A stretch of 58,296 nucleotides of DNA from a virus. Where the stretch lies: IMG/VR virus record IMGVR_UViG_3300029240_000011; one strand, given 5' to 3'. Numbering within the stretch: position 1 is the first letter of the stretch; every line of letters begins with the position of its first letter. Below the pieces are notes generated by a model, which was not told where the DNA came from, searched no databases, and worked only from the letters and a program-made list of their open reading frames with translations. Positions 12,906 to 53,633 of this stretch are shown here, one piece after another. Position numbers and translations under genes: made by a program.

Positions 12906-13131
12906 GTATATACCGCCTTTCTAAAATGTTATTTTCACCTTATATGTTGACCCAGGGCAGGGGAGTAAGGTGGCACCTCCCTTTTCGGCCCGTCGGCCTA
13001 TCCCTGGCGTTCAACCAATGTTGTGAGAGACAGCGATATCCGTTTGCCTCTCAAATGGTAGATTCTAAATCAAAATCTCCGCTATCCATATATTCGGTTG
13101 TCAAGGTACAATTTATTGGAATGGATGGAAA

Positions 13132-22263: not shown

Positions 22264-22337
22264 TGGAGCAGCGCACGGGTCTTGAACCCGTACCATCAGC
22301 TTTGAAAGCTGGTATGCGCCAATTACACCAGCGCTGC
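22264..22337 (-). tRNA. tRNA with anticodon UCA (opal suppressor type), CCA encoded
   Basis: Hand-folded cloverleaf: 7/7 acceptor pairs, 5/5 T stem with loop TTCAAGA, 4-bp D stem with GG in the loop, anticodon loop TT-TCA-AA, 4-nt variable loop, discriminator T. Confidence 0.8.
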
Positions 22338-30774: not shown

Positions 30775-30850
30775 TGGAGCCACCGGGAGGACTTGAACCT
30801 CCAACTTACCGATTACAAGACGGTTGCTCTACCAGTTGAGCCACGATGGC
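30775..30850 (-). tRNA. tRNA-Thr (anticodon UGU), CCA encoded
   Basis: GCCATCG-TG-GCTC-AACTGGTA-GAGC-A-ACCGT-CTTGTAA-TCGGT-AAGTT-GGAGG-TTCAAGT-CCTCC-CGGTGGC-T-CCA. One U-U mismatch at 31-39. Confidence 0.85.
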
Positions 30851-47277: not shown

Positions 47278-48351
47278 ATGTCAATGGAATGTGCAAAATG
47301 TAAAGCAACTTTGCCAAATGGTGCATTGTATTGTCCTATGTGTGGGAAAAAGCAGATCTCAGAAAAGAGAAAAGCTTTGAAGCGCGCCAACAGGACGGGC
47401 ACCGTCTATAAGCTGCAGGGGCGAAGAAAACGCCCCTGGGTGGCCGCGAAGAATAAAGTGATCATTGGATACTACGAGCGAAAAACGGACGCTTTGGAGG
47501 CTCTTGAGCACCTATCTGGGAAAGATCTGAGCGAGCGTTATAATATGACATTTTCAGAAGTTTTTCAGGGATGGCGTGAGGAACATTATAAAACTATTAC
47601 GAAGAGCGGTATAGCATCCTATAACATCGCCTTCAAGGTATTTGCACCGCTACACAATAGAAAATTTAGAGACTTACGTACTGCAGATTTCCAAGCAGAA
47701 ATAGACAAACACATTGGAAAATCTTACTCTACTTTGTCAAAACACAAACAACTCATTACTCAAATGTATCAATGGGCCATCCGGGAAGAAATATGCACAA
47801 CAAATTTCGCAAAGTTTGTCCAACTTCCAGAGAACAAGAAGAAAGAAAAAGAAATTTTTTCAGACGAAGAAATCAAAAAGCTTGAAGAAGACGGAAGCGA
47901 AGCAGCAAGGATCGTCCTCATGCTCTTGGCAACTGGTATGCGCATTGGGGAGCTATTTTCGCTTCCGCTAAAAGACTACCACGGAACATATGTCGTTGGA
48001 GGCTCTAAAACCGAAGCCGGCAGAAACCGGATCATACCAATTCGTCCAGAAGGTAGAGCACATTTCGAGTATTTTTCCCGGCAAGCAGATGGACCACTGC
48101 TACTTTCTGGATACACAGGCCAAAAGGTATATACTAATTATCGAAAGCGGGATTATTACCCACTGTTAGATAAGCTTGGAATTAAGCGCAAAACGCCTCA
48201 TGCAACCAGGCACACATACACATCCAGAGCAGTTAAAGAAGGTATGCCCCCAGAGATCCTTCAAAAAATTCTTGGCCATGCAGACTACTCTACCACGGCA
48301 AATGTTTATACCCACATCGATATTGAAACATTGGTGAAGTCTGTTGAATAA
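47278..48351 (+). CDS. int: tyrosine integrase with N-terminal zinc ribbon
   Basis: CAKCKA...CPMCG N-terminus. C-terminal ...HATRHTYTSRAV...LGHADYSTTANVYTH catalytic motifs. Confidence 0.9.
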   Translation: MSMECAKCKATLPNGALYCPMCGKKQISEKRKALKRANRTGTVYKLQGRRKRPWVAAKNKVIIGYYERKTDALEALEHLSGKDLSERYNMTFSEVFQGWREEHYKTITKSGIASYNIAFKVFAPLHNRKFRDLRTADFQAEIDKHIGKSYSTLSKHKQLITQMYQWAIREEICTTNFAKFVQLPENKKKEKEIFSDEEIKKLEEDGSEAARIVLMLLATGMRIGELFSLPLKDYHGTYVVGGSKTEAGRNRIIPIRPEGRAHFEYFSRQADGPLLLSGYTGQKVYTNYRKRDYYPLLDKLGIKRKTPHATRHTYTSRAVKEGMPPEILQKILGHADYSTTANVYTHIDIETLVKSVE

Positions 48352-48358
48352 ATCACGG

Positions 48359-48380
48359 TTACTAACGCGTTACTAACAAA
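48359..48380 (+). repeat. two TTACTAAC(G/A) units (putative integrase arm-type sites, int-proximal arm)
   Basis: Read directly. Confidence 0.5.
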
Positions 48381-48403
48381 TCATTTTCAGAAGAAAAGAA
48401 GAA

Positions 48404-48436
48404 AACCCAGAAACCATTGCGGTTTCCGGGTTTTTC
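48404..48436. terminator. stem-loop AACCCaGAAACC/GGTTTCcGGGTT with flanking T/A runs (terminator for int, and for the tRNA on the other strand)
   Basis: Read directly. Confidence 0.65.
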
Positions 48437-48478
48437 TGGTGGAGAATACAGGACTCGAACCTGTGACCCCCTGCACGT
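48437..48478 (-). other. attP core: 3' fragment of a tRNA gene (variable loop GGGTC, T arm ACAGG-TTCGAGT-CCTGT, acceptor ATTCTCC, A73, CCA)
   Basis: The cloverleaf is absent 5' of the anticodon-stem position. Adjacent to int. Flanked by arm repeats. Confidence 0.75.
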
Positions 48479-48585
48479 CAAATATATTCAGCTTATATAC
48501 AAGGTTGTTCGAAAATGATTTTCCTTGATTTATCAATGGTTTTTTGCAATTCAAATCATTATAAATCATCTAAAAACACTTTGGG

Positions 48586-48607
48586 TTACTAACAAATTAC
48601 TAACAAA
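48586..48607 (+). repeat. tandem TTACTAACAAA x2 (putative integrase arm-type sites, distal arm)
   Basis: Read directly. Confidence 0.5.
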
Positions 48608-48628
48608 TCGAACTCAGAGATGAGCTTT

Positions 48629-49327
48629 TTACTCTACAATATTTTCGTAGTATTCTGCCAGTTTGTCCGGTACAGCATCTTTATCTTTCAGCCAAAAAGC
48701 AATTGCAGAGTCTACATAGAAATCGATCGTATTGACTCCATGCTTTTTATTGACAGCGCACCGATCACTGTACTCCGCATTCATCGCAACCCAGAGTTTC
48801 AAGGGATCGCAGTCCAGCCCCTTTTGAGAGATCAGCTGCTTTACCTGGTCAAGAGACCAATGACCTCCGGTGCTTCCATCTTCGTTCTGCATCTCTGATA
48901 CCCACTCTTCTGCCATTTTCTTATTAAACGATACAGGCGCACCGGACGCATAACCAGAAGTCATTTTCCCGTAACGGCCATAATCCATTTCCGGGAAATC
49001 TTTGTGGTTAGCATCACTTCGATAGTTCTTTTCAATTTCAGGCCGACTGTAGTTCTCTCCTGCAGAAAAGCCGATCTTATTCATTGGGCGATACCTCCCG
49101 TCATTCTCGTGATGCTCTCTATAAACGGGCGGCATATATTCATTTCTCATAGGCGCATAACGCCCATTGTCGTAATGCTCACGTCCTCTGTCATCCCGAA
49201 ACCGGCCTTCGATCCAGGCGCCCCAATCGTCACGAGGGTAATACTCGTGGGAAAATGAATCATAGTCATATCCACGTTCGTTTCTTTTCTCACGGTTCAT
49301 CATGAGCATTTTCGTTAAACCCTTCAT
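48629..49327 (-). CDS. cargo protein: R/Y/D/E/N-rich low-complexity N-half + globular C-terminal domain
   Basis: 232-aa track ORF. ATGA overlap with the upstream gene. Confidence 0.55.
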   Translation of the reverse strand: MKGLTKMLMMNREKRNERGYDYDSFSHEYYPRDDWGAWIEGRFRDDRGREHYDNGRYAPMRNEYMPPVYREHHENDGRYRPMNKIGFSAGENYSRPEIEKNYRSDANHKDFPEMDYGRYGKMTSGYASGAPVSFNKKMAEEWVSEMQNEDGSTGGHWSLDQVKQLISQKGLDCDPLKLWVAMNAEYSDRCAVNKKHGVNTIDFYVDSAIAFWLKDKDAVPDKLAEYYENIVE

Positions 49328-49740
49328 TTAGAAACCTCCCTTACAGCAGCTGTAGGAACAACTGTACTTCCACCATCGATGGAAGTCAGGTTATTATTGG
49401 GAGCGCAGCAAGGACTTCCAAGCATGCGGAAAGATCCTCCTGTTGGCGTTGTCACAACACATACGGAATACCGCGTGCGGGTACGAATGCCGCAGGCGGT
49501 AACCTGTGCACAATTTCGCTTTGTCAGTGGGTAAAGAGTGGTTCCTGTACCGATAGTAATATACACCGGGGCATTAATAGTTGCAGCATCAGGGATGCTC
49601 TGTGCAACAACGATACAGTATTTCTCTCCATTGTTGTAGGAACCGGCGGGCAGATTAATCTCCAAGTTTCCGCCAGTAAAAGCGACAGCCTGAGACAACA
49701 CCAGGTGATTGCAAAGTTTGCATACAGGTTTGCAAGACAT
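49324..49740 (-). CDS. cargo protein: Cys-rich, 138 aa
   Basis: GGAGG SD before ATG 49740 (MSCKPVCKLCNH...). Confidence 0.55.
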   Translation of the reverse strand: MSCKPVCKLCNHLVLSQAVAFTGGNLEINLPAGSYNNGEKYCIVVAQSIPDAATINAPVYITIGTGTTLYPLTKRNCAQVTACGIRTRTRYSVCVVTTPTGGSFRMLGSPCCAPNNNLTSIDGGSTVVPTAAVREVSK

Positions 49741-49843
49741 ATATTTTACCTCCAAAAATCAGGGACGGCGAACATCAGCTCACCGCCCCGAAATCGTCAC
49801 GGCAAAGCCGGAATTACCATATTGGTAAAGTCAAAAAAATTGT

Positions 49844-50602
49844 TCAGCAGCCACAGCCGCAGCCGTTGTTATAGGCCCCGCAATAGGGGTAGGGTGCAGG
49901 AACCTGATAGGCAGGTACAGGCATGGGGTTGATCCGGCGAATCAGCTCAGAGGTCTGCGCGTCCAAAGTCGCCGTCAAATAGCTGTTCTGGTTAGCCTGA
50001 GAAGCAGCCAGCTTGAGAGACTGATTCTCCGCCTGCAAGCTGGAGATCTTATCCTGAGTCAGGAAATCCAGAATCGCACGGGTGTTGGCATTCTGCCCGT
50101 CGATGATATCCCGTGTAGTGGACTGGATCAGATTACGGGTATCGCAGGCCTGCGTAGCCATATCATACCGAACGCCCTGAATAGCCGTCTGCGTATCGCA
50201 GCAGCACTGTGCCATCTGTGCACCGAGCGAATTGAAGCCCATCTGCGTCTGATACCCCAGGTTGCACACCGCAGTGTCCACACTGTGGAAACCATTGTTA
50301 ATGCTGTTGTTCAGTGCAAAGGTGCTGTCACAAATGCCCTGCTGAATACCCCGGACGCCATTCTGCAGGTCATTGAAATTGAACTCACTGCACAGATCCG
50401 CACGCGTCAATGCACCCTGACCAGCCGGGCTGTTGATGCCGCCGTTACCGCCGAATCCGCCCCAGCCGCCGTTTCCCCAGCCGAAGATCATAGCAAAGAG
50501 GATAATGGCCCACCAGCCATCTCCGCCCCACATACCATTTCCGTTCCCATTGTTGCTGTCTTGACCAAGCGCATAGCCCAAAGCCATAGAATCATCAGCC
50601 AT
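49844..50602 (-). CDS. cargo protein: Gly/Trp-rich N-terminus + TM helix + Q/N-rich helical region + CGCGC tail
   Basis: 252-aa track ORF. AAGGAG SD. Confidence 0.55.
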   Translation of the reverse strand: MADDSMALGYALGQDSNNGNGNGMWGGDGWWAIILFAMIFGWGNGGWGGFGGNGGINSPAGQGALTRADLCSEFNFNDLQNGVRGIQQGICDSTFALNNSINNGFHSVDTAVCNLGYQTQMGFNSLGAQMAQCCCDTQTAIQGVRYDMATQACDTRNLIQSTTRDIIDGQNANTRAILDFLTQDKISSLQAENQSLKLAASQANQNSYLTATLDAQTSELIRRINPMPVPAYQVPAPYPYCGAYNNGCGCGC

Positions 50603-50716
50603 AATTTTATCTCCTTTTCCGTTATATCACATCGGCCTGCGCACTGCCGAATGTGTCAAAATCACACTCGGTTTTTATCAAGGCCGAAAACTGAAAAGTG
50701 AGAATGCTTAAGTCTG

Positions 50717-50968
50717 TTATCTCTTCCCTCCTCTTGGGAATGTGTTCTGCATCTGCTTTATAAACTGGTCAAGATCAATCCCGCGTTCTTTGGCAATGTT
50801 TTCTGCCATACTGCGAAGTTGATTTGAATTTTTTCCACGGATCATCTGATTAAATTGCTGCACTTGCGGATTGTTTCTTCCCATTTGATCAAAAAATGAC
50901 ATTGGGTTGCCACCGCCCTGCATCATCTGCATAAGCATTTGCATGGGATTATTCGACATCGGCATCAT
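50717..50968 (-). CDS. cargo protein: Met/Gln-rich, 83 aa
   Basis: Track ORF. Confidence 0.5.
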   Translation of the reverse strand: MMPMSNNPMQMLMQMMQGGGNPMSFFDQMGRNNPQVQQFNQMIRGKNSNQLRSMAENIAKERGIDLDQFIKQMQNTFPRGGKR

Positions 50969-51386
50969 TGCCCTTTACCACCTTTCCACGCTTTTTCAAT
51001 TTTTCAATTTCCGATTGGAGTCCAGAAATCTTTTCTTGCAATTCCTGGATATCCTTAGACGAAGCGTAATCAGGGGCAGCCTGTTCCTGTTCAGCGCGGA
51101 ACGTAAAAATATCTGAAGCACCCGTTTGATTGTTAAAACGCTTCAAATAAATTTCACCTTTGGCCAGATTCGGCATTAACGTGCCCTGATTAAAAAAATC
51201 GATTTGGCTTGCAATCGCTTCTTCACGACTTGTGACAGGTCTGACACTGAAGGTAGGTAAATTCACCTGCGGTTGAGCAGATGGCTGCTGCTGAGCCTGC
51301 TGCGTCATCTGCGGTGCATATTGAGGCTGAATCGAGGGAGGAATTTGAGCGTAATTTGGATATCCTCCATAATTATAAAAATTCAT
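50949..51386 (-). CDS. cargo protein: Q/P/Y-rich N-terminus + small domain + coiled-coil tail (145 aa)
   Basis: Track ORF. ATGA overlap with the upstream 54-aa ORF. Confidence 0.5.
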   Translation of the reverse strand: MNFYNYGGYPNYAQIPPSIQPQYAPQMTQQAQQQPSAQPQVNLPTFSVRPVTSREEAIASQIDFFNQGTLMPNLAKGEIYLKRFNNQTGASDIFTFRAEQEQAAPDYASSKDIQELQEKISGLQSEIEKLKKRGKVVKGNDADVE

Positions 51387-51547
51387 AACTCCACTCCTGC
51401 GTCATGATAAGTTTCTGCAGATTGAATAAATGATTCCAGCGCAGCCCAATCTTCAACTGAGGCATATTTCTGACAAATATCCGTCGCATTTGATTCTGTA
51501 AAACCACATCGCACTAAACGGCTAATTAATTCTCTTCCATTTTCCAT
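51383..51547 (-). CDS. small hypothetical protein (54 aa; not in the ORF track)
   Basis: Own translation: MENGRELISRLVRCGFTESNATDICQKYASVEDWAALESFIQSAETYHDAGVEL. Confidence 0.45.
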   Translation of the reverse strand: MENGRELISRLVRCGFTESNATDICQKYASVEDWAALESFIQSAETYHDAGVEL

Positions 51548-51693
51548 TTGAACACGTCCTTATGTAAAAAATAAGGAGGATCGTGAGGAGGGTGGCGACG
51601 TGTACCAACCCTAAATCCCCACGTCCTCCATGCCTATATTGTCGCAGAAAAATACCCCGGCTGGGGTTGATCCCAGTCGGGGTTATGTATGAT

Positions 51694-51945
51694 TTATGTT
51701 TGATTTGTGTAGAGACTTTTGGCTACGTCAGCAACTCTTTGGAATACATATTTTTCGTGGGTACTCACAGCGCCACGATACCAGCCCAGCTCCGCTGCTA
51801 CATCAATCTGATCCCATTTATCAATAATTCTTCGCTTGGCAATCAGTTCGTCATCCTTGTGCAAAGCCGATTCGTAGATTGCCTTTTCGAGCTGAGAGCG
51901 CAAAAGCTTTCCCAGCGGTTCCGGTAATTTTACTCTTGCGCTCAT
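51694..51945 (-). CDS. small sigma-70 region-4-like HTH protein (83 aa)
   Basis: DELIAKRRIIDKWDQIDVAAELGWYRGAVSTHEKYVFQRV. Confidence 0.5.
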   Translation of the reverse strand: MSARVKLPEPLGKLLRSQLEKAIYESALHKDDELIAKRRIIDKWDQIDVAAELGWYRGAVSTHEKYVFQRVADVAKSLYTNQT

Positions 51946-51960
51946 AATCCACGTCCTTTC

Positions 51961-52650
51961 TTATCTCATCGCCTTTGCCAACTTTACCATCAGATCTTCC
52001 CCGTACTTGTAAGCACCGAGGAACTGAATCGTATACGCATCCAGCCCCGCCTTGTCCATAATAATTTTCTTTGCCTCGTCCGTAGTCATGGTTTGCACCT
52101 CCCCTTTATATGCAATGCCCAGCGTTTTCAAAATACCTTTGGAATATGCCGCAGCGAACGTTCTGCGCTTTTCCTCCGTATTGATCTTCTGCGCGTCCGC
52201 ACTGTCAATGAACGCGCATTCCAGAATCACCGCAGGGCACTTTGTCTGACGGATAAAGCCGAAATAATCTTTGCCCGCGCTATTCGCTCTGGTTTTCAAT
52301 CCCCGGCTTTTCTGCCCGATCTTGATGACTTCTGCTTCGATGTTCTGCGCCAGCACTTTCCCCTTGCCGCCGCTCAGGGTGTGATAGGCCTCAAAGCCTT
52401 CCCCGCCGCCGGCGTTGGTGTGGATGTCCACCGCATACTCCGGCGCGAATGCGTTGCACTCTTTCACCTCTTCGCTGGTGGGATCGTCCTCATCCACTGT
52501 TCGACTGATTCCAACTGTCACACCGTGGCGCTGCAATTCTTCCCGCAAATGCAGCGCAATGGAGAGATTGACCTCTTTTTCTTTCAGGCCGTTGCCCACA
52601 GCGCCGGCATCGCTTCCGCCATGCCCCACGCCAATAAATACCTTGCTCAC
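51961..52650 (-). CDS. endolysin: N-acetylmuramoyl-L-alanine amidase (Amidase_3 type)
   Basis: VFIGVGHGGSDAGAVGNGLKEKEVNL...DIHTNAGGG. GGAAAGGAG SD before GTG 52650. Confidence 0.85.
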   Translation of the reverse strand: MSKVFIGVGHGGSDAGAVGNGLKEKEVNLSIALHLREELQRHGVTVGISRTVDEDDPTSEEVKECNAFAPEYAVDIHTNAGGGEGFEAYHTLSGGKGKVLAQNIEAEVIKIGQKSRGLKTRANSAGKDYFGFIRQTKCPAVILECAFIDSADAQKINTEEKRRTFAAAYSKGILKTLGIAYKGEVQTMTTDEAKKIIMDKAGLDAYTIQFLGAYKYGEDLMVKLAKAMR

Positions 52651-52816
52651 GTATCGCTCCTTTCCGGGCAGCAAAAAACCGCCCTGTCAAATGAGTTGAC
52701 AAAAGCGGCTCTCTGCGATAGAATAAAGCCAGTAAGAATGGCTGCCATTGCAGTGGCGGTCGTCCCTGTGCAAGTTTGTAGCTTGAAGGAAACGCCGCTC
52801 ACCGCCTGGTGGGCGG

Positions 52817-53020: not shown

Positions 53021-53287
53021 TCAATCGCTCTTTTTGGGGCAGGTATAGCGCAGCGCCTGCGCGCTGTCGCTGACTCCTGCGGTGGTCGGATCGATAAAGA
53101 CCGCCAGTACCGCCAGCACCACCGTCACAAGCTGAACGGGATTGCGCAGCACGTCCACAATGTACCCGCCCAGGCTTTCCCAGCTCACAAACTGCTGTGG
53201 ATCCACGCCGAGCGCCGTAATGATAATGGACACTACGCCTACCCAGAACCACGGGTTTTTCAGGCGAACCGGAATATTAACCTTCAT
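53021..53287 (-). CDS. holin (phi LC3 / Phage_holin_1 family)
   Basis: MKVNIPVRLKNPWFWVGVVSIIITALG...FIDPTTAGVSDSAQALRY signature. Confidence 0.8.
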   Translation of the reverse strand: MKVNIPVRLKNPWFWVGVVSIIITALGVDPQQFVSWESLGGYIVDVLRNPVQLVTVVLAVLAVFIDPTTAGVSDSAQALRYTCPKKSD

Positions 53288-53633
53288 TGTGTACCTCGAT
53301 ATGATCCCCCACCACAGCAAAGGTATAGCCTGCGATGTACAGCGTGGCCTTCGGCGCATTACCTTTCACATCAAAGCCCGTATCATAGTCCAGCTTGCCC
53401 GCTGTGACGTGCATCTTCTCCGGAGTGCCAATTCCATGATCCATGAAGCCGTATCCGCTCGTGCCCGCCGGCGTGCCGTCCGAGTGCGTCTGCGCCATCT
53501 CCGCGCCGGTGATCGCGTTCTTCATCGGATCTAGCCGCAGACCCACCGTGCACTCCGCCAGTCTCTTGTTGGCCTCTTCCACCGTGATCTCACCTTTGCT
53601 GTAGCTCAAAATAATTTCAGTTGCTTTTCCCAT
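53277..53633 (-). CDS. hypothetical protein in the lysis cassette (118 aa)
   Basis: AAAGGAG SD. Confidence 0.5.
   Translation of the reverse strand: MGKATEIILSYSKGEITVEEANKRLAECTVGLRLDPMKNAITGAEMAQTHSDGTPAGTSGYGFMDHGIGTPEKMHVTAGKLDYDTGFDVKGNAPKATLYIAGYTFAVVGDHIEVHNEG

Follow-up and report, generated by a model that had tools for sequence, protein, structure and literature searches.

Introduction

The slot after the endolysin gene is a general collecting place for accessory genes in Firmicutes prophages, and the morons found there, between lysin and attP, have an autonomous layout of promoter, genes and terminator. Lysis proteins such as the spanins (Rz/Rz1, LysB/LysC of P2) and the single-pass T4-type holin, as well as the proteins of the spore coat and exosporium, are the other described systems with which the locus studied here can be compared. 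It lies in a viral DNA of 58,296 nucleotides (IMG/VR record IMGVR_UViG_3300029240_000011), which in its entirety is referred to as the window. A preliminary description had taken its seven genes for lysogenic-conversion cargo of this phage, and had likened the products to coat or exosporium-type proteins. According to the present analysis, p1 to p7 are not private cargo but this phage's copy of an accessory module that is complete in itself and widespread among gut phages.

Organization of the Locus

An ORF check of the window confirmed seven co-oriented minus-strand ORFs at positions 48629-51945, flanked by an Amidase_3 endolysin gene on one side and by the attP core and a tyrosine integrase gene on the other, as had been described. 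The endolysin gene is immediately upstream of p1, with 15 nt between its stop and the p1 start, and the tRNA-derived attP core and int follow downstream, so that the locus does occupy the slot of lysogenic-conversion genes, at the late-operon end next to attP that is one mark of a moron.

53021..53359, minus strand: holin, Phage_holin_1 (Pfam E 1.3e-17), a gene separate from the module
51961..52674, minus strand: endolysin, Amidase_3 (Pfam E 1.3e-32; PHROG 435, endolysin)
51694..51945, minus strand: p1, 83 aa, small HTH protein, final gene ahead of the terminator
51383..51547, minus strand: p2, 54 aa, small helical protein, first gene after the leader
50949..51386, minus strand: p3, 145 aa, Q/P/Y-rich N-terminus, beta-type core, coiled-coil K-rich tail
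50717..50968, minus strand: p4, 83 aa, Met/Gln/Asn-rich, helical
49844..50602, minus strand: p5, 252 aa, the hallmark protein, PHROG 16490
49324..49740, minus strand: p6, 138 aa from ATG, Cys-rich, all-beta
48629..49327, minus strand: p7, 232 aa, disordered R/Y/D/E/G-rich N-half and DUF7841 five-helix domain (aa ~130-232)
48437..48481, minus strand: attP core, the 3' 45 nt of a tRNA-Val(GAC)-like gene
47278..48351, plus strand: tyrosine integrase, converging on the module

The attP core, which was assigned by comparison with the tRNA adjoining a related prophage in Anaerotruncus colihominis (L088), is flanked by TTACTAAC repeats at 48358-48382 and 48586-48610. The tight packing with ATGA overlaps that had been reported applies to p2/p3 and p6/p7, and p3/p4 overlap by 20 nt, but it does not extend to three gaps of about 100-146 nt (p1-p2, p4-p5 and p5-p6), all of which contain structured RNA. 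For p6, an alternative TTG start is present at 49755. The G+C content of the module is that of the remaining phage. Given thousands of homologues and conserved synteny, p1 to p7 are real genes and not chance ORFs.

Transcription Signals and Leader RNA

Downstream of p1, a terminator, a TGn -10-like motif and a RAGATH-31 RNA stand in that order, an arrangement that is new here. RAGATH denotes RNAs associated with genes associated with twister and hammerhead ribozymes. Two further hairpin structures are found toward the end of the module.

51654..51683, minus strand: intrinsic-terminator-like hairpin and U-run directly 3' of p1 (fold and terminator scan)
51638..51646, minus strand: TGCGACAAT, TGn-extended -10-like promoter motif just past the terminator U-run (consensus match only)
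51575..51629, minus strand: RAGATH-31 RNA (Rfam RF03101), a hairpin with the 5' arm GGAGGACGUG followed by a U-rich tract, 5' leader of p2-p7
49762..49789, minus strand: GC-rich hairpin and U-run in the p5-p6 gap, with overlap of the p6 ribosome-binding site
48402..48434, both strands: bidirectional terminator, a 15-pair stem on the minus strand and a matching plus-strand stem

Hairpins differing in sequence occur at the same position after p1 in 77 of 101 distinct loci, and in 38 of these 77 the TGn -10-like motif follows the terminator, compared with 6.3 expected from shuffles. The RAGATH-31 assignment exceeds the gathering score over the full model (cmscan 75.1 bits versus 71.8, E 8e-14, model positions 1-54 of 54), and the leader folds stably (z-score -3.96). 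It is situated between p1 and p2 or the optional pepC in 70 of 172 loci, on the module strand every time, and Rfam also matched it in the loci L017, L069 and L094. In related loci, the surroundings of the module contain RAGATH-31, RAGATH-21, a twister-P5 ribozyme and ribozymes of hammerhead type II. While RAGATH-31 is filed in Rfam as an sRNA gene, it has here the fixed place and orientation of a 5' leader; no paper naming the motif was found in the literature searched. The string GGAGGACGUG is common to RAGATH-31 and the ribosome-binding regions of p1 and p2. Taken with the fixed position as a leader and the U-rich tract, this makes RAGATH-31 look like a cis-regulatory element. The frequencies of terminator, -10-like motif and RAGATH-31 among the loci suggest that p2-p7 may be gated separately from p1.

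The hairpin between p5 and p6 (12-pair stem with 8 G-C pairs, fold z-score -3.85) is possibly an attenuator or stabiliser. The bidirectional terminator ends both the module and the convergent integrase gene. Regarding the promoter and terminator of its own by which a moron is recognized, the terminators are clear and the promoter is a TGn -10-like consensus match only.

The Module Proteins

Searches of Pfam, PHROG, NCBIfam, PDB and PADLOC returned no characterised family, solved structure or defence system for p1 to p7 (PADLOC models: no match at E<=0.1). The families matched, PHROG 16490, PHROG 21718 and Pfam DUF7841, are all of unknown function; no tail, lysis or structural family of characterised function was found among Pfam, PHROG and NCBIfam, and the earlier statement that nothing here resembles a standard phage function was thus borne out, as were the compositional descriptions of the proteins.

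A relative of p1 is located at the head of the module in 128 of 168 loci, and p1 is presumed to be its regulator. The preliminary description had called it sigma region-4-like; the matches of its HTH are weak and spread over KorA (E 0.012), KorB (E 0.12) and region 4 of SigG (E 0.11), all below curated cut-offs. The p2 family, which is without a match in Pfam, PHROG or NCBIfam, is present in 61 of 168 loci. Much more constant is p3 (154/168), assigned to PHROG 21718 (E 3e-9) with further weak matches to coiled-coil-type Pfam families; its core is conserved as V..V..E.A...IYLK..D..G in the alignment. p4 (M 14, Q 13, N 11%) or the alternative p4b is found in 138 of 168 loci, and p4 gave a weak match to the STI1-like region of Rad23 (E 0.0017). 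In P0110, p6 is fused to an N-terminus resembling that of p4, and in cr52_1 gp23 the N-terminus of p5 carries a fused p4-like motif. Many loci additionally contain pepC, a papain-like protein with an invariant D-C...H...D pattern that is absent from the window.

The hallmark protein p5 matches the PHROG 16490 HMM over its full length (aa 15-252, E 2.2e-84). Its relatives, found in at least 563 viral contigs, 196 species genomes and 1834 representative clusters, are every one annotated as "hypothetical". An acidic N-tail precedes a hydrophobic segment with G/W flanks; then come helical repeats of about 20 residues that bear Cys and have an invariant CCC, followed by a coiled coil, a Pro-rich stretch and a CGCGC tail. 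The protein ends in NNGCGCGC. Judged from the family statistics of the acidic tail, the short G/W-flanked membrane segment and the large Cys-rich helical domain, p5 is probably a single-pass membrane anchor with its bulk in the cytoplasm.

In p6, which contains 9 Cys, an N-terminal C-x3-C-x2-C motif is shared by 50 of 57 family members; none of its 4954 homologue clusters has a Pfam domain, and the AF2 model is weak (pLDDT 52) and all-beta. In other loci its slot is held by an unrelated beta protein, p6b (PHROG 20016), and neither the p6 nor the p6b profile found anything in the PDB at E<=10. The C-terminal part of p7 is DUF7841 (Pfam PF25223, aa 121-228, 114.5 bits versus a cut-off of 25.2, E 4e-33). 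AF2 predicts a confident globular domain for residues 130-232 (pLDDT >90) behind a disordered N-half; the domain fold had no match in the PDB, and in BFVD it matched only DUF7841 proteins of gut phages. The last gene also varies, with either p7 or p7a plus p7b, and p7/p7a are rich in R/G/D/E/Y. DUF7841 is also found fused to an R/Y-rich tail.

Distribution and Genomic Context

The co-occurrence search that had been proposed recovered the order p1 (HTH), p2, [papain-like], p3, p4, p5, beta protein, R/Y-rich/DUF7841 protein in ~166 loci fetched from viral and genome collections, the beta-protein and last-gene slots being filled by interchangeable, non-homologous proteins. Hundreds of phages of gut Clostridia carry the module together with many endolysin and integrase types, and the genomes containing it are overwhelmingly those of Clostridia. 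A reading as cargo specific to one lineage is thereby not supported, since hundreds of different phages, whose endolysins are of at least seven types, have the same syntenic module; the moron-like autonomy of the unit, with terminator, promoter-like motif, leader RNA and end terminator, stands. The constant gene order in these ~166 loci also does not fit the sporadic, variable content of a moron.

The module is shown to travel as a unit between unrelated phages and usually to sit right after the lysis genes. Among 102 non-redundant upstream neighbours, about two thirds are peptidoglycan hydrolases of seven or more families. In nine of the 102, the neighbour is Phage_min_cap2, and the module there lies inside the head-gene operon, with the genes for portal and minor capsid protein on one side and those for scaffold and major capsid protein on the other; in one such locus (L153), the first module gene and the stop of its upstream neighbour overlap, implying translational coupling. 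In the C. perfringens phage CPD1, the module is found between lysis and replication genes, 3.4 kb from the former and beside early-type genes. From the latter locus and the ~9% of loci in head operons it follows that the link to lysis is not obligatory.

Relatives of p5 (E 3e-11) and DUF7841 also adjoin holin and LysB-like genes in crAss-like Suoliviridae, phages that are not temperate and whose hosts are non-sporulating Bacteroidota. In all five such loci examined, a LysB/FtsL-like gene is upstream of the DUF7841 gene, adjacent in four, while in cr118_1 three genes and about 1.7 kb separate the two; three of the five have a holin annotated alongside, and p5-like genes come after in cr52_1 and cr10_1. 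Genes labelled "virion structural protein" surround these relatives. In cr52_1, the p5-like gene has in-frame stop codons. Recoding is reported in a preprint to be concentrated in late and lytic genes (bioRxiv 10.1101/2021.08.26.457843); the stops, if recoded, would fit late translation of this gene.

Proposed Role

Our best guess, advanced tentatively, is that the module encodes a tightly gated, lysis-linked complex built on p5. p1 would be made from the late lysis transcript and would likely serve as gatekeeper of p2-p7, a separately gated transcription unit whose expression would need the passage of two hairpin-plus-U-tract signals, resulting in an "after-late" timing. The products would form one complex around p5 on the cytoplasmic membrane. 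No obvious N-terminal signal sequence can be read in the partner proteins; p3 (beta core/coiled coil), p4 (Met/Gln-rich), p6 (C-x3-C-x2-C beta protein) and p7 (DUF7841) would bind p5. The cell envelope would be the target of the complex at about the time of lysis. The complex would help to time or complete the disruption of the membrane, or take part in release, and would not remodel the surface of the lysogen or the spore.

The shared gene order and the fusions of p4 with p6, of a p4-like motif with p5 and of DUF7841 with an R/Y-rich tail are consistent with one functional unit, and the neighbouring lysis genes, which recur in two phage groups unrelated to each other, point to lysis. Several points count against this role. 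p1 to p7 are without homology to holin, spanin, antiholin or other lysis proteins, and no holin family in Pfam, PHROG or NCBIfam matched p2-p7. Lysis proteins are not typically of low complexity or rich in Cys, Tyr and Gln; we know of no step after the endolysin in monoderm Clostridia, which are most of the hosts; and the slot itself attracts accessory genes of many kinds.

It is unlikely that the module is instead a large moron expressed from its own promoter in the prophage state that alters the host cell, for example by superinfection exclusion or, as the preliminary description had proposed, by a cross-linked layer of surface, coat or spore-associated type. Such cargo would be expected in the endolysin-attP slot and with the moron-like layout seen here; the mobility of the module between genome positions and the exchange of p6 for p6b and of p7 for p7a plus p7b, as in arms-race genes, fit it as well, as do the coat-like compositions of the sequences and a related prophage (L004) in a genome with spo0A, spoIVB and spoVA genes. 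However, content and order do not vary as in typical morons, some copies are translationally coupled within a head operon, and the soluble proteins are without signal peptides. No spore-coat, exosporium, Ena or defence-system family was matched (CotZ/ExsY, GerQ, BclA_C, DUF3992 and YjcZ models in Pfam and NCBIfam: no match at E<=1). A spore-coat or exosporium reading is not general either, because p5 and DUF7841 occur in the crAss-like phages.

Virion-internal or ejection proteins with their chaperones, delivered into the envelope of the next host at infection, are a distinctly unlikely alternative, in which p5 would be a packaged membrane-inserting protein kept soluble by the Met-rich p4, and the R/Y-rich part of p7 would bind DNA. 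The copies within head operons and the "virion structural" surroundings of the crAss-like relatives would suit this, and so would the PDB entry that the p5 profile matched best (influenza HA2, in the region of fusion peptide and helix A, profile positions 49-127, E 0.012, non-significant). Against it, the module is passed between siphophages and crAss-like podophages whose particles are unrelated, whereas co-evolution with capsid and portal is the rule for internal virion proteins; its commonest position is after the endolysin, it has its own regulator, terminators and leader, and virion proteomic evidence was looked for and none was found. A very improbable reading is that of a self-assembling, cross-linkable matrix, made at the end of infection, released at lysis and hardened by oxidation, which would in many loci include a papain/transglutaminase-like Cys-His-Asp protein and would protect or aggregate progeny outside the anoxic gut: Cys contents (~7% in p6, a mean of 10.5 residues in the p5 family), the R/G/D/E/Y-rich p7/p7a, the Q-rich p3/p4, the invariant pattern of pepC and the restriction to phages of obligate gut anaerobes of two phyla speak for it, but the argument is one of composition throughout, with no homology to matrix or coat proteins, the window has no pepC, p5 with its hydrophobic segment looks like a membrane anchor rather than part of a secreted matrix, and no such phage matrix is known to us.

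Taking the lysis-linked complex further, the module might be a previously unrecognised late-stage device common to Clostridia siphophages and crAss-like podophages, in which the fusion-peptide-like, Cys-rich p5 and its partners would perform a lysis or release step that model phages lack, or else would form a redox-triggered, cross-linked assembly, with RAGATH-31 as a dedicated cis-regulatory switch; jointly, these steps are improbable. If true, this would give the first biological context for part of the neighbourhood that defines the RAGATH/twister/hammerhead association.

Comparison with Known Systems

The resemblance to CotY/CotZ/ExsY, GerQ and Tgl, CotC/CotU/CotG, BclA, Ena and YjcZ is one of composition only: like spore coat and exosporium, the module has proteins rich in Cys, Q and Tyr/Arg, a hydrophobic N-region rich in G and, in some copies, a Cys-His-Asp protein, whereas profile matches in Pfam, NCBIfam and PDB are absent and relatives exist in phages of non-sporulating Bacteroidota. 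With HA2, a class I fusion protein, p5 has in common the Gly/Trp-rich hydrophobic segment, G-W-x-G...Q-G...A-D and a long helix, a likeness that probably explains the label "spike protein/glycoprotein" on crAss homologues. The match is not significant and may reflect composition; p5 differs in its N-terminal extension before the hydrophobic segment, its many Cys and its lack of a second membrane anchor.

With spanins and the T4-type holin, p5 shares the outline of a putative N-terminal membrane segment, a long helical/coiled-coil domain with conserved Cys and a Pro-rich stretch. The context is similar too, next to lysis genes and, in crAss-like phages, near a LysB-like gene with the DUF7841 gene between. 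Unlike spanins, p5 has no lipoprotein partner and no sequence similarity to them, most hosts are without an outer membrane, and the window already has a canonical holin. A two-component spanin with a lipobox partner was rejected, as neither a signal peptide nor a lipobox is present at the start of any module protein and the genomes with the module are overwhelmingly those of Clostridia.

Closest in slot and layout are the morons at the lysin-attP end of Firmicutes prophages, and the module too can sit elsewhere in late operons. It departs from them in having no toxin, enzyme or surface-protein homology, in components that recur in crAss-like phages, and in its seven to nine genes held in fixed order across hundreds of phages.

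A Widespread Gut-Phage Module

The seven minus-strand ORFs p1 to p7, situated after the endolysin and before attP, constitute one copy of a gut-phage module that is very widespread, previously undescribed, and equipped with a dedicated RAGATH-31 leader. Scanning of IMG/VR with p5, the 252-amino acid fifth protein, retrieved at least 563 contigs. At one genome per species, 196 genomes were obtained, nearly all of them from Clostridia (Oscillospiraceae, Lachnospiraceae, and related groups), and many abundant gut Clostridia carry prophages with the module. The p5 neighbourhoods, mapped by iterated HMM searches in about 166 loci, follow the near-invariant order p1 (HTH)-p2-(pepC)-p3-p4-p5-small beta protein-R/Y-rich protein. 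On both counts, these genes are not the private cargo of one phage.

Within this order, some variation is accommodated. PepC, found between p2 and p3, is an optional 125-amino acid protein with an invariant D-C...H...D pattern, and the R/Y-rich last protein includes or lacks a small helical domain, depending on the locus. Two slots have swappable occupants, namely either p6 or p6b, and either p7 or the pair p7a and p7b; the mutual homology of the occupants is undetectable, and none was found by hhalign of p6 against p6b or of p7 against p7a or p7b. The parts of the module are bound together by fusions. The p6 homologue P0110 (195 amino acids) has a p4-like Met/Gln-rich N-terminus joined to the p6 body, either as natural fusion or as gene-call merge; the p5 homologue of a crAss-like phage includes a p4-like Met-rich stretch; and the R/Y-rich tail is located on opposite sides of the domain DUF7841 in p7 and in its crAss-like relative.

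Layout of the Window

The window appears to be a circularly permuted genome of a temperate phage, nearly all of whose genes are on the minus strand. The features surrounding the array are as follows.

Features around the seven-gene array
53021-53359, minus strand: holin, Phage_holin_1 (Pfam)
51961-52674, minus strand: endolysin, Amidase_3 (Pfam, PHROGs)
51945 down to 48629, minus strand: seven ORFs, p1 to p7 (ORF map)
48437-48481, minus strand: attP core, 45 nt that match the 3' end of a tRNA-Val(GAC)-like gene
48402-48434, both strands: bidirectional terminator (hairpin scan)
48358-48382 and 48586-48610, either side of the tRNA-derived attP core: direct repeats containing TTACTAAC
47278-48351, convergent to the module: tyrosine integrase

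The ORF map bears out the seven ORFs of the preliminary description and also their location, with the Amidase_3 endolysin on one side and the tRNA-derived attP core and the integrase on the other. The tight packing with ATGA overlaps claimed for them applies to p2/p3 and p6/p7, but three gaps of about 100-146 nt interrupt the array. The repeats containing TTACTAAC look like arm-type integrase binding sites; beyond attP, a Cro/C1-type HTH gene is also present with the integrase.

Two phage-encoded tRNAs were observed elsewhere in the window. One (22264-22337, minus strand), with the anticodon TCA, was called "tRNA-SeC" by ARAGORN and was also scored as tRNA by Rfam; this UGA-reading tRNA could be a stop-codon suppressor instead of a selenocysteine tRNA. 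The other is a tRNA-Thr(TGT) (30775-30850, minus strand). An Rfam int-alpA RNA (RF02996; 47.5 bits versus a gathering score of 35.8) is found within the half of the phage genome that holds the structural genes (12938-13008, minus strand), and a match to this family is also present in the related locus L121, where it is located between p5 and the gene for the beta protein.

The RAGATH-31 Leader and Putative Module Regulation

The gap between p1 and p2 contains a compact series of putative regulatory elements.

Elements of the p1-p2 region, all on the minus strand
51654-51683: hairpin and T-run following p1
51638-51646: TGn-extended -10-like motif (consensus match)
51575-51629: full-length RAGATH-31 (Rfam), 75.1 bits versus a gathering score of 71.8
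51948-51957 (p1 ribosome-binding site), 51551-51560 (p2 ribosome-binding site), and 51620-51629 (RAGATH-31 5' arm): AGGACGUG string

A hairpin with T-run directly follows p1 in 77 of the 101 distinct loci, its position being constant and its sequence varying by locus. Within 40 nt after this hairpin, the TGn-extended -10-like motif occurs in 38 of the 77 loci, compared to 6.3 expected from shuffling; in the three intergenic gaps of the window, no sigma-70-type -35/-10 promoter stands out. On the 3' side of RAGATH-31 are a U-rich tract and, at a distance of 27 nt, the p2 start codon, and the entire leader folds much better than shuffled sequences (z = -3.96). Of 172 loci, 70 contain the element pattern, invariably on the module strand and between p1 and either p2 or pepC. 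In the 5' arm of the element, GGAGGACGUG, the AGGACGUG string of the p1 and p2 ribosome-binding regions recurs; the 3' arm of the hairpin (CCCUCC...CUCC) might in theory base-pair with one or the other AGGACGUG copy, in an SD-mimic arrangement. A second strong hairpin with U-run, between p5 and p6, spans the p6 ribosome-binding site. By inference, p2 to p7 would constitute a separately gated unit, and p1, which would be produced together with the lysis genes, would be its likely gatekeeper. For the assignment of p1 as a sigma-like HTH protein in the preliminary description, the HTH matches are sub-threshold.

Further structured RNAs accompany related loci. RAGATH-21 (RF03097) is located just after the module in L003 (7825-7901) and from a few hundred nt to approximately 2 kb past the last module gene in L107 (9309-9395) and L108 (8281-8367); it is followed in L107 by tRNAs and by the scaffold-gene leader GP20-b, and in L108 by GP20-b. 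A twister-P5 ribozyme is found downstream of the module in L123 (8673-8735), and two hammerhead type II ribozymes of equal score are encoded on the opposite strand near the module in L126 (9346-9414 and 10663-10731). Two Rfam motifs of unknown function also flank related loci, namely a FuFi-1 RNA (L069, 13332-13490, minus strand) and a Clostridiales-1 RNA (L145, 3773-3941, minus strand). RAGATH-31 was not mentioned in any paper searched; the module now supplies a fixed genetic context for it. Bacterial hammerheads are reported to cluster close to integrases in prophages (PMC3088659; PMC6765202), and according to a 2019 review, it "has not yet been determined" why twister and hammerhead ribozymes have gene associations in common (PMC6765202). 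For this question the module offers a concrete, culturable test site, for instance, in the prophage of Anaerotruncus colihominis DSM 17241 (L088), located near 1.67 Mb of NZ_CP102255 and with a p5 identity of 78%.

Genomic Position of the Module

In about two thirds of the 102 non-redundant loci, the nearest large upstream gene encodes a cell-wall hydrolase (CHAP, 18; Amidase_2, 15; Amidase_3, 14; NAGPA, 6; GH25, 5; NlpC/P60, 4). Nine of the 102 have the gene for minor capsid protein 2 of phages at this place; in these loci, the module is flanked on one side by the portal gene and the minor capsid gene, and on the other by scaffold and major capsid genes. In the C. perfringens phage CPD1, the module is found 3.4 kb after amidase and holin, with a KilA-N gene ahead of it and recombination and replication genes behind. 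From these three positions, it follows that the unit is mobile; the end of the lysis cassette is its preferred, non-obligatory site. An integrase is located within 1.5 kb after the module in 56 loci, while another 46 loci stop too early to judge.

Two further observations concern other genes of phages with the module. In CPD1 (L173), a gene annotated as "integrase" (894-2153) has the same strand as every other gene and is flanked by the head and tail genes on one side and, on the other, by a minor capsid gene at the record end, which is an unusual site for an integrase. In Dulem virus 35 (L003, 3964-4696), two small proteins precede the head-operon module, both containing a coiled coil and a single membrane segment; presumably, they resemble lysis proteins of the XhlA/BhlA type.

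Relatives in crAss-Like Phages

The matches of DUF7841, the domain forming the C-terminal half of p7, include crAss-like phages of the family Suoliviridae, with crAss-like phages being the most abundant human gut viruses. In all five crAss-like loci examined, the DUF7841 gene is downstream of a gene with a LysB/FtsL-like annotation, adjoining it in four and separated by approximately 1.7 kb and three genes in cr118_1; a holin is annotated next to it in three of the five. The gene after DUF7841 in cr52_1, labelled "spike protein/glycoprotein", encodes a clear homologue of p5 (pairwise test, E = 3e-11), sharing the G/W-flanked hydrophobic segment, a CCC motif, the coiled coil, a P-x-P-A-Y stretch, and a GCGCG tail, and is followed by a gene for a 144-amino acid beta-rich protein. 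Five further crAss-like records were found independently with the C. perfringens p5 as query. In cr52_1 (L168, 2710-6599), many in-frame stops of the standard code occur in gp20, gp21, the p5-like gp23, and gp25, and gp24 and the DUF7841 gene have none, a pattern that resembles stop-codon recoding.

Sequence Features of p5 and Other Module Proteins

Among 120 full-length representatives, p5 has an acidic N-terminal tail of about 31 amino acids (on average 3.2 D/E and 0.8 K/R), a hydrophobic core of 13 residues with Gly and Trp flanks, a mean of 10.5 Cys, and, in 102 of the 120, a CxC/CG tail at the C-terminus; conserved Cys of the helical part are spaced about every 20 residues. The distribution of charges gives a weak preference for an N-out, C-in orientation. 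Signal peptides are absent in p3, p4, p6, and p7, which would fit cytoplasmic assembly. In the p6 family, an N-terminal C-x3-C-x2-C motif, present in 50 of 57 members, suggests putative metal or cluster binding.

Possible Functions

Homology being uninformative, the functional argument rests on context. Tentatively, the module may play a late, envelope-directed, lysis-linked role, because it adjoins lysis genes in two unrelated phage groups, because lysis cassettes are known to be exchanged between phages as units, because the tight gating suggests a product that would be harmful when made early, and because p5 is putatively membrane-anchored. Against a lysis-linked role stand the lack of any similarity to lysis proteins in the searches, the fact that most hosts are monoderm, the location of the module in head operons and in CPD1, and protein compositions unlike those of known lysis factors. 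If p5 were membrane-active, a lysis or release step absent from model phages could emerge.

Cargo expressed during lysogeny, including exclusion functions or the surface or spore role of the preliminary description, is unlikely. The hosts of these crAss-like phages are Bacteroidota, non-sporulating bacteria with an outer membrane, and the phages are not known to be temperate in the classical sense; therefore, a spore-, Gram-positive-surface- or lysogeny-specific function is not the general one. The coat- or exosporium-type reading is supported in part only. Quite unlikely are virion-internal or ejection proteins, and a cross-linkable matrix released at lysis is highly doubtful. The remaining probability belongs to something not yet imagined. 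The finding itself is real, and module membership together with the RAGATH-31 leader is a more useful result than the reading as coat or exosporium cargo.

Comparison with Known Systems

The claim that nothing known is encoded here holds. In Pfam, PHROGs, NCBIfam, and PADLOC, all seven proteins matched only families of unknown function, as did the alternative module proteins. DUF7841 (PF25223) is the sole Pfam recognition among p1 to p7, and PHROGs assigned p5 to family 16490 and p3 to family 21718, neither with a known function; no significant match came from NCBIfam, PADLOC, or PDB. For PDB, this applies to p5 and p7 as sequence queries and to the profiles of p5, p6, p6b, and pepC. Clustering of the p5 family yields 1834 representatives at 50% identity, each 200-300 amino acids long and devoid of domain fusions, and at least 7988 clusters at 90%, and the p6 family comprises 4954 clusters; throughout, source names of p5, p6, and p7 homologues are "hypothetical protein" or missing. 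Literature searches covering DUF7841, prophage links of endospore appendages, lysis genes of crAss phages, and named C. perfringens phages did not return functional data.

In the AlphaFold2 model of p7, the R/Y/D/E-rich N-terminal half is disordered, while the five-helix DUF7841 domain has a pLDDT above 90. This domain had no fold match in PDB, and in BFVD its only matches were further proteins with DUF7841, encoded by siphophages, podophages, and crAss-like phages of the gut; retroviral matrix proteins (best E 2.1, probability below 0.1) were treated as noise. The p6 model, built with 30 close homologues, was too weak for a fold search (pLDDT 52). An Ena-like identity of p6 found no support, and a presumed likeness of p6b to the BclA C-terminal/C1q fold was dropped, as sequence searches gave no confirmation. 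The best PDB match of the p5 profile was the fusion-peptide flank and helix A of influenza HA2, which at E = 0.012 is non-significant and may be compositional. By the tests run, the module fits no known system, and its functional assignment would annotate thousands of "hypothetical" genes together.
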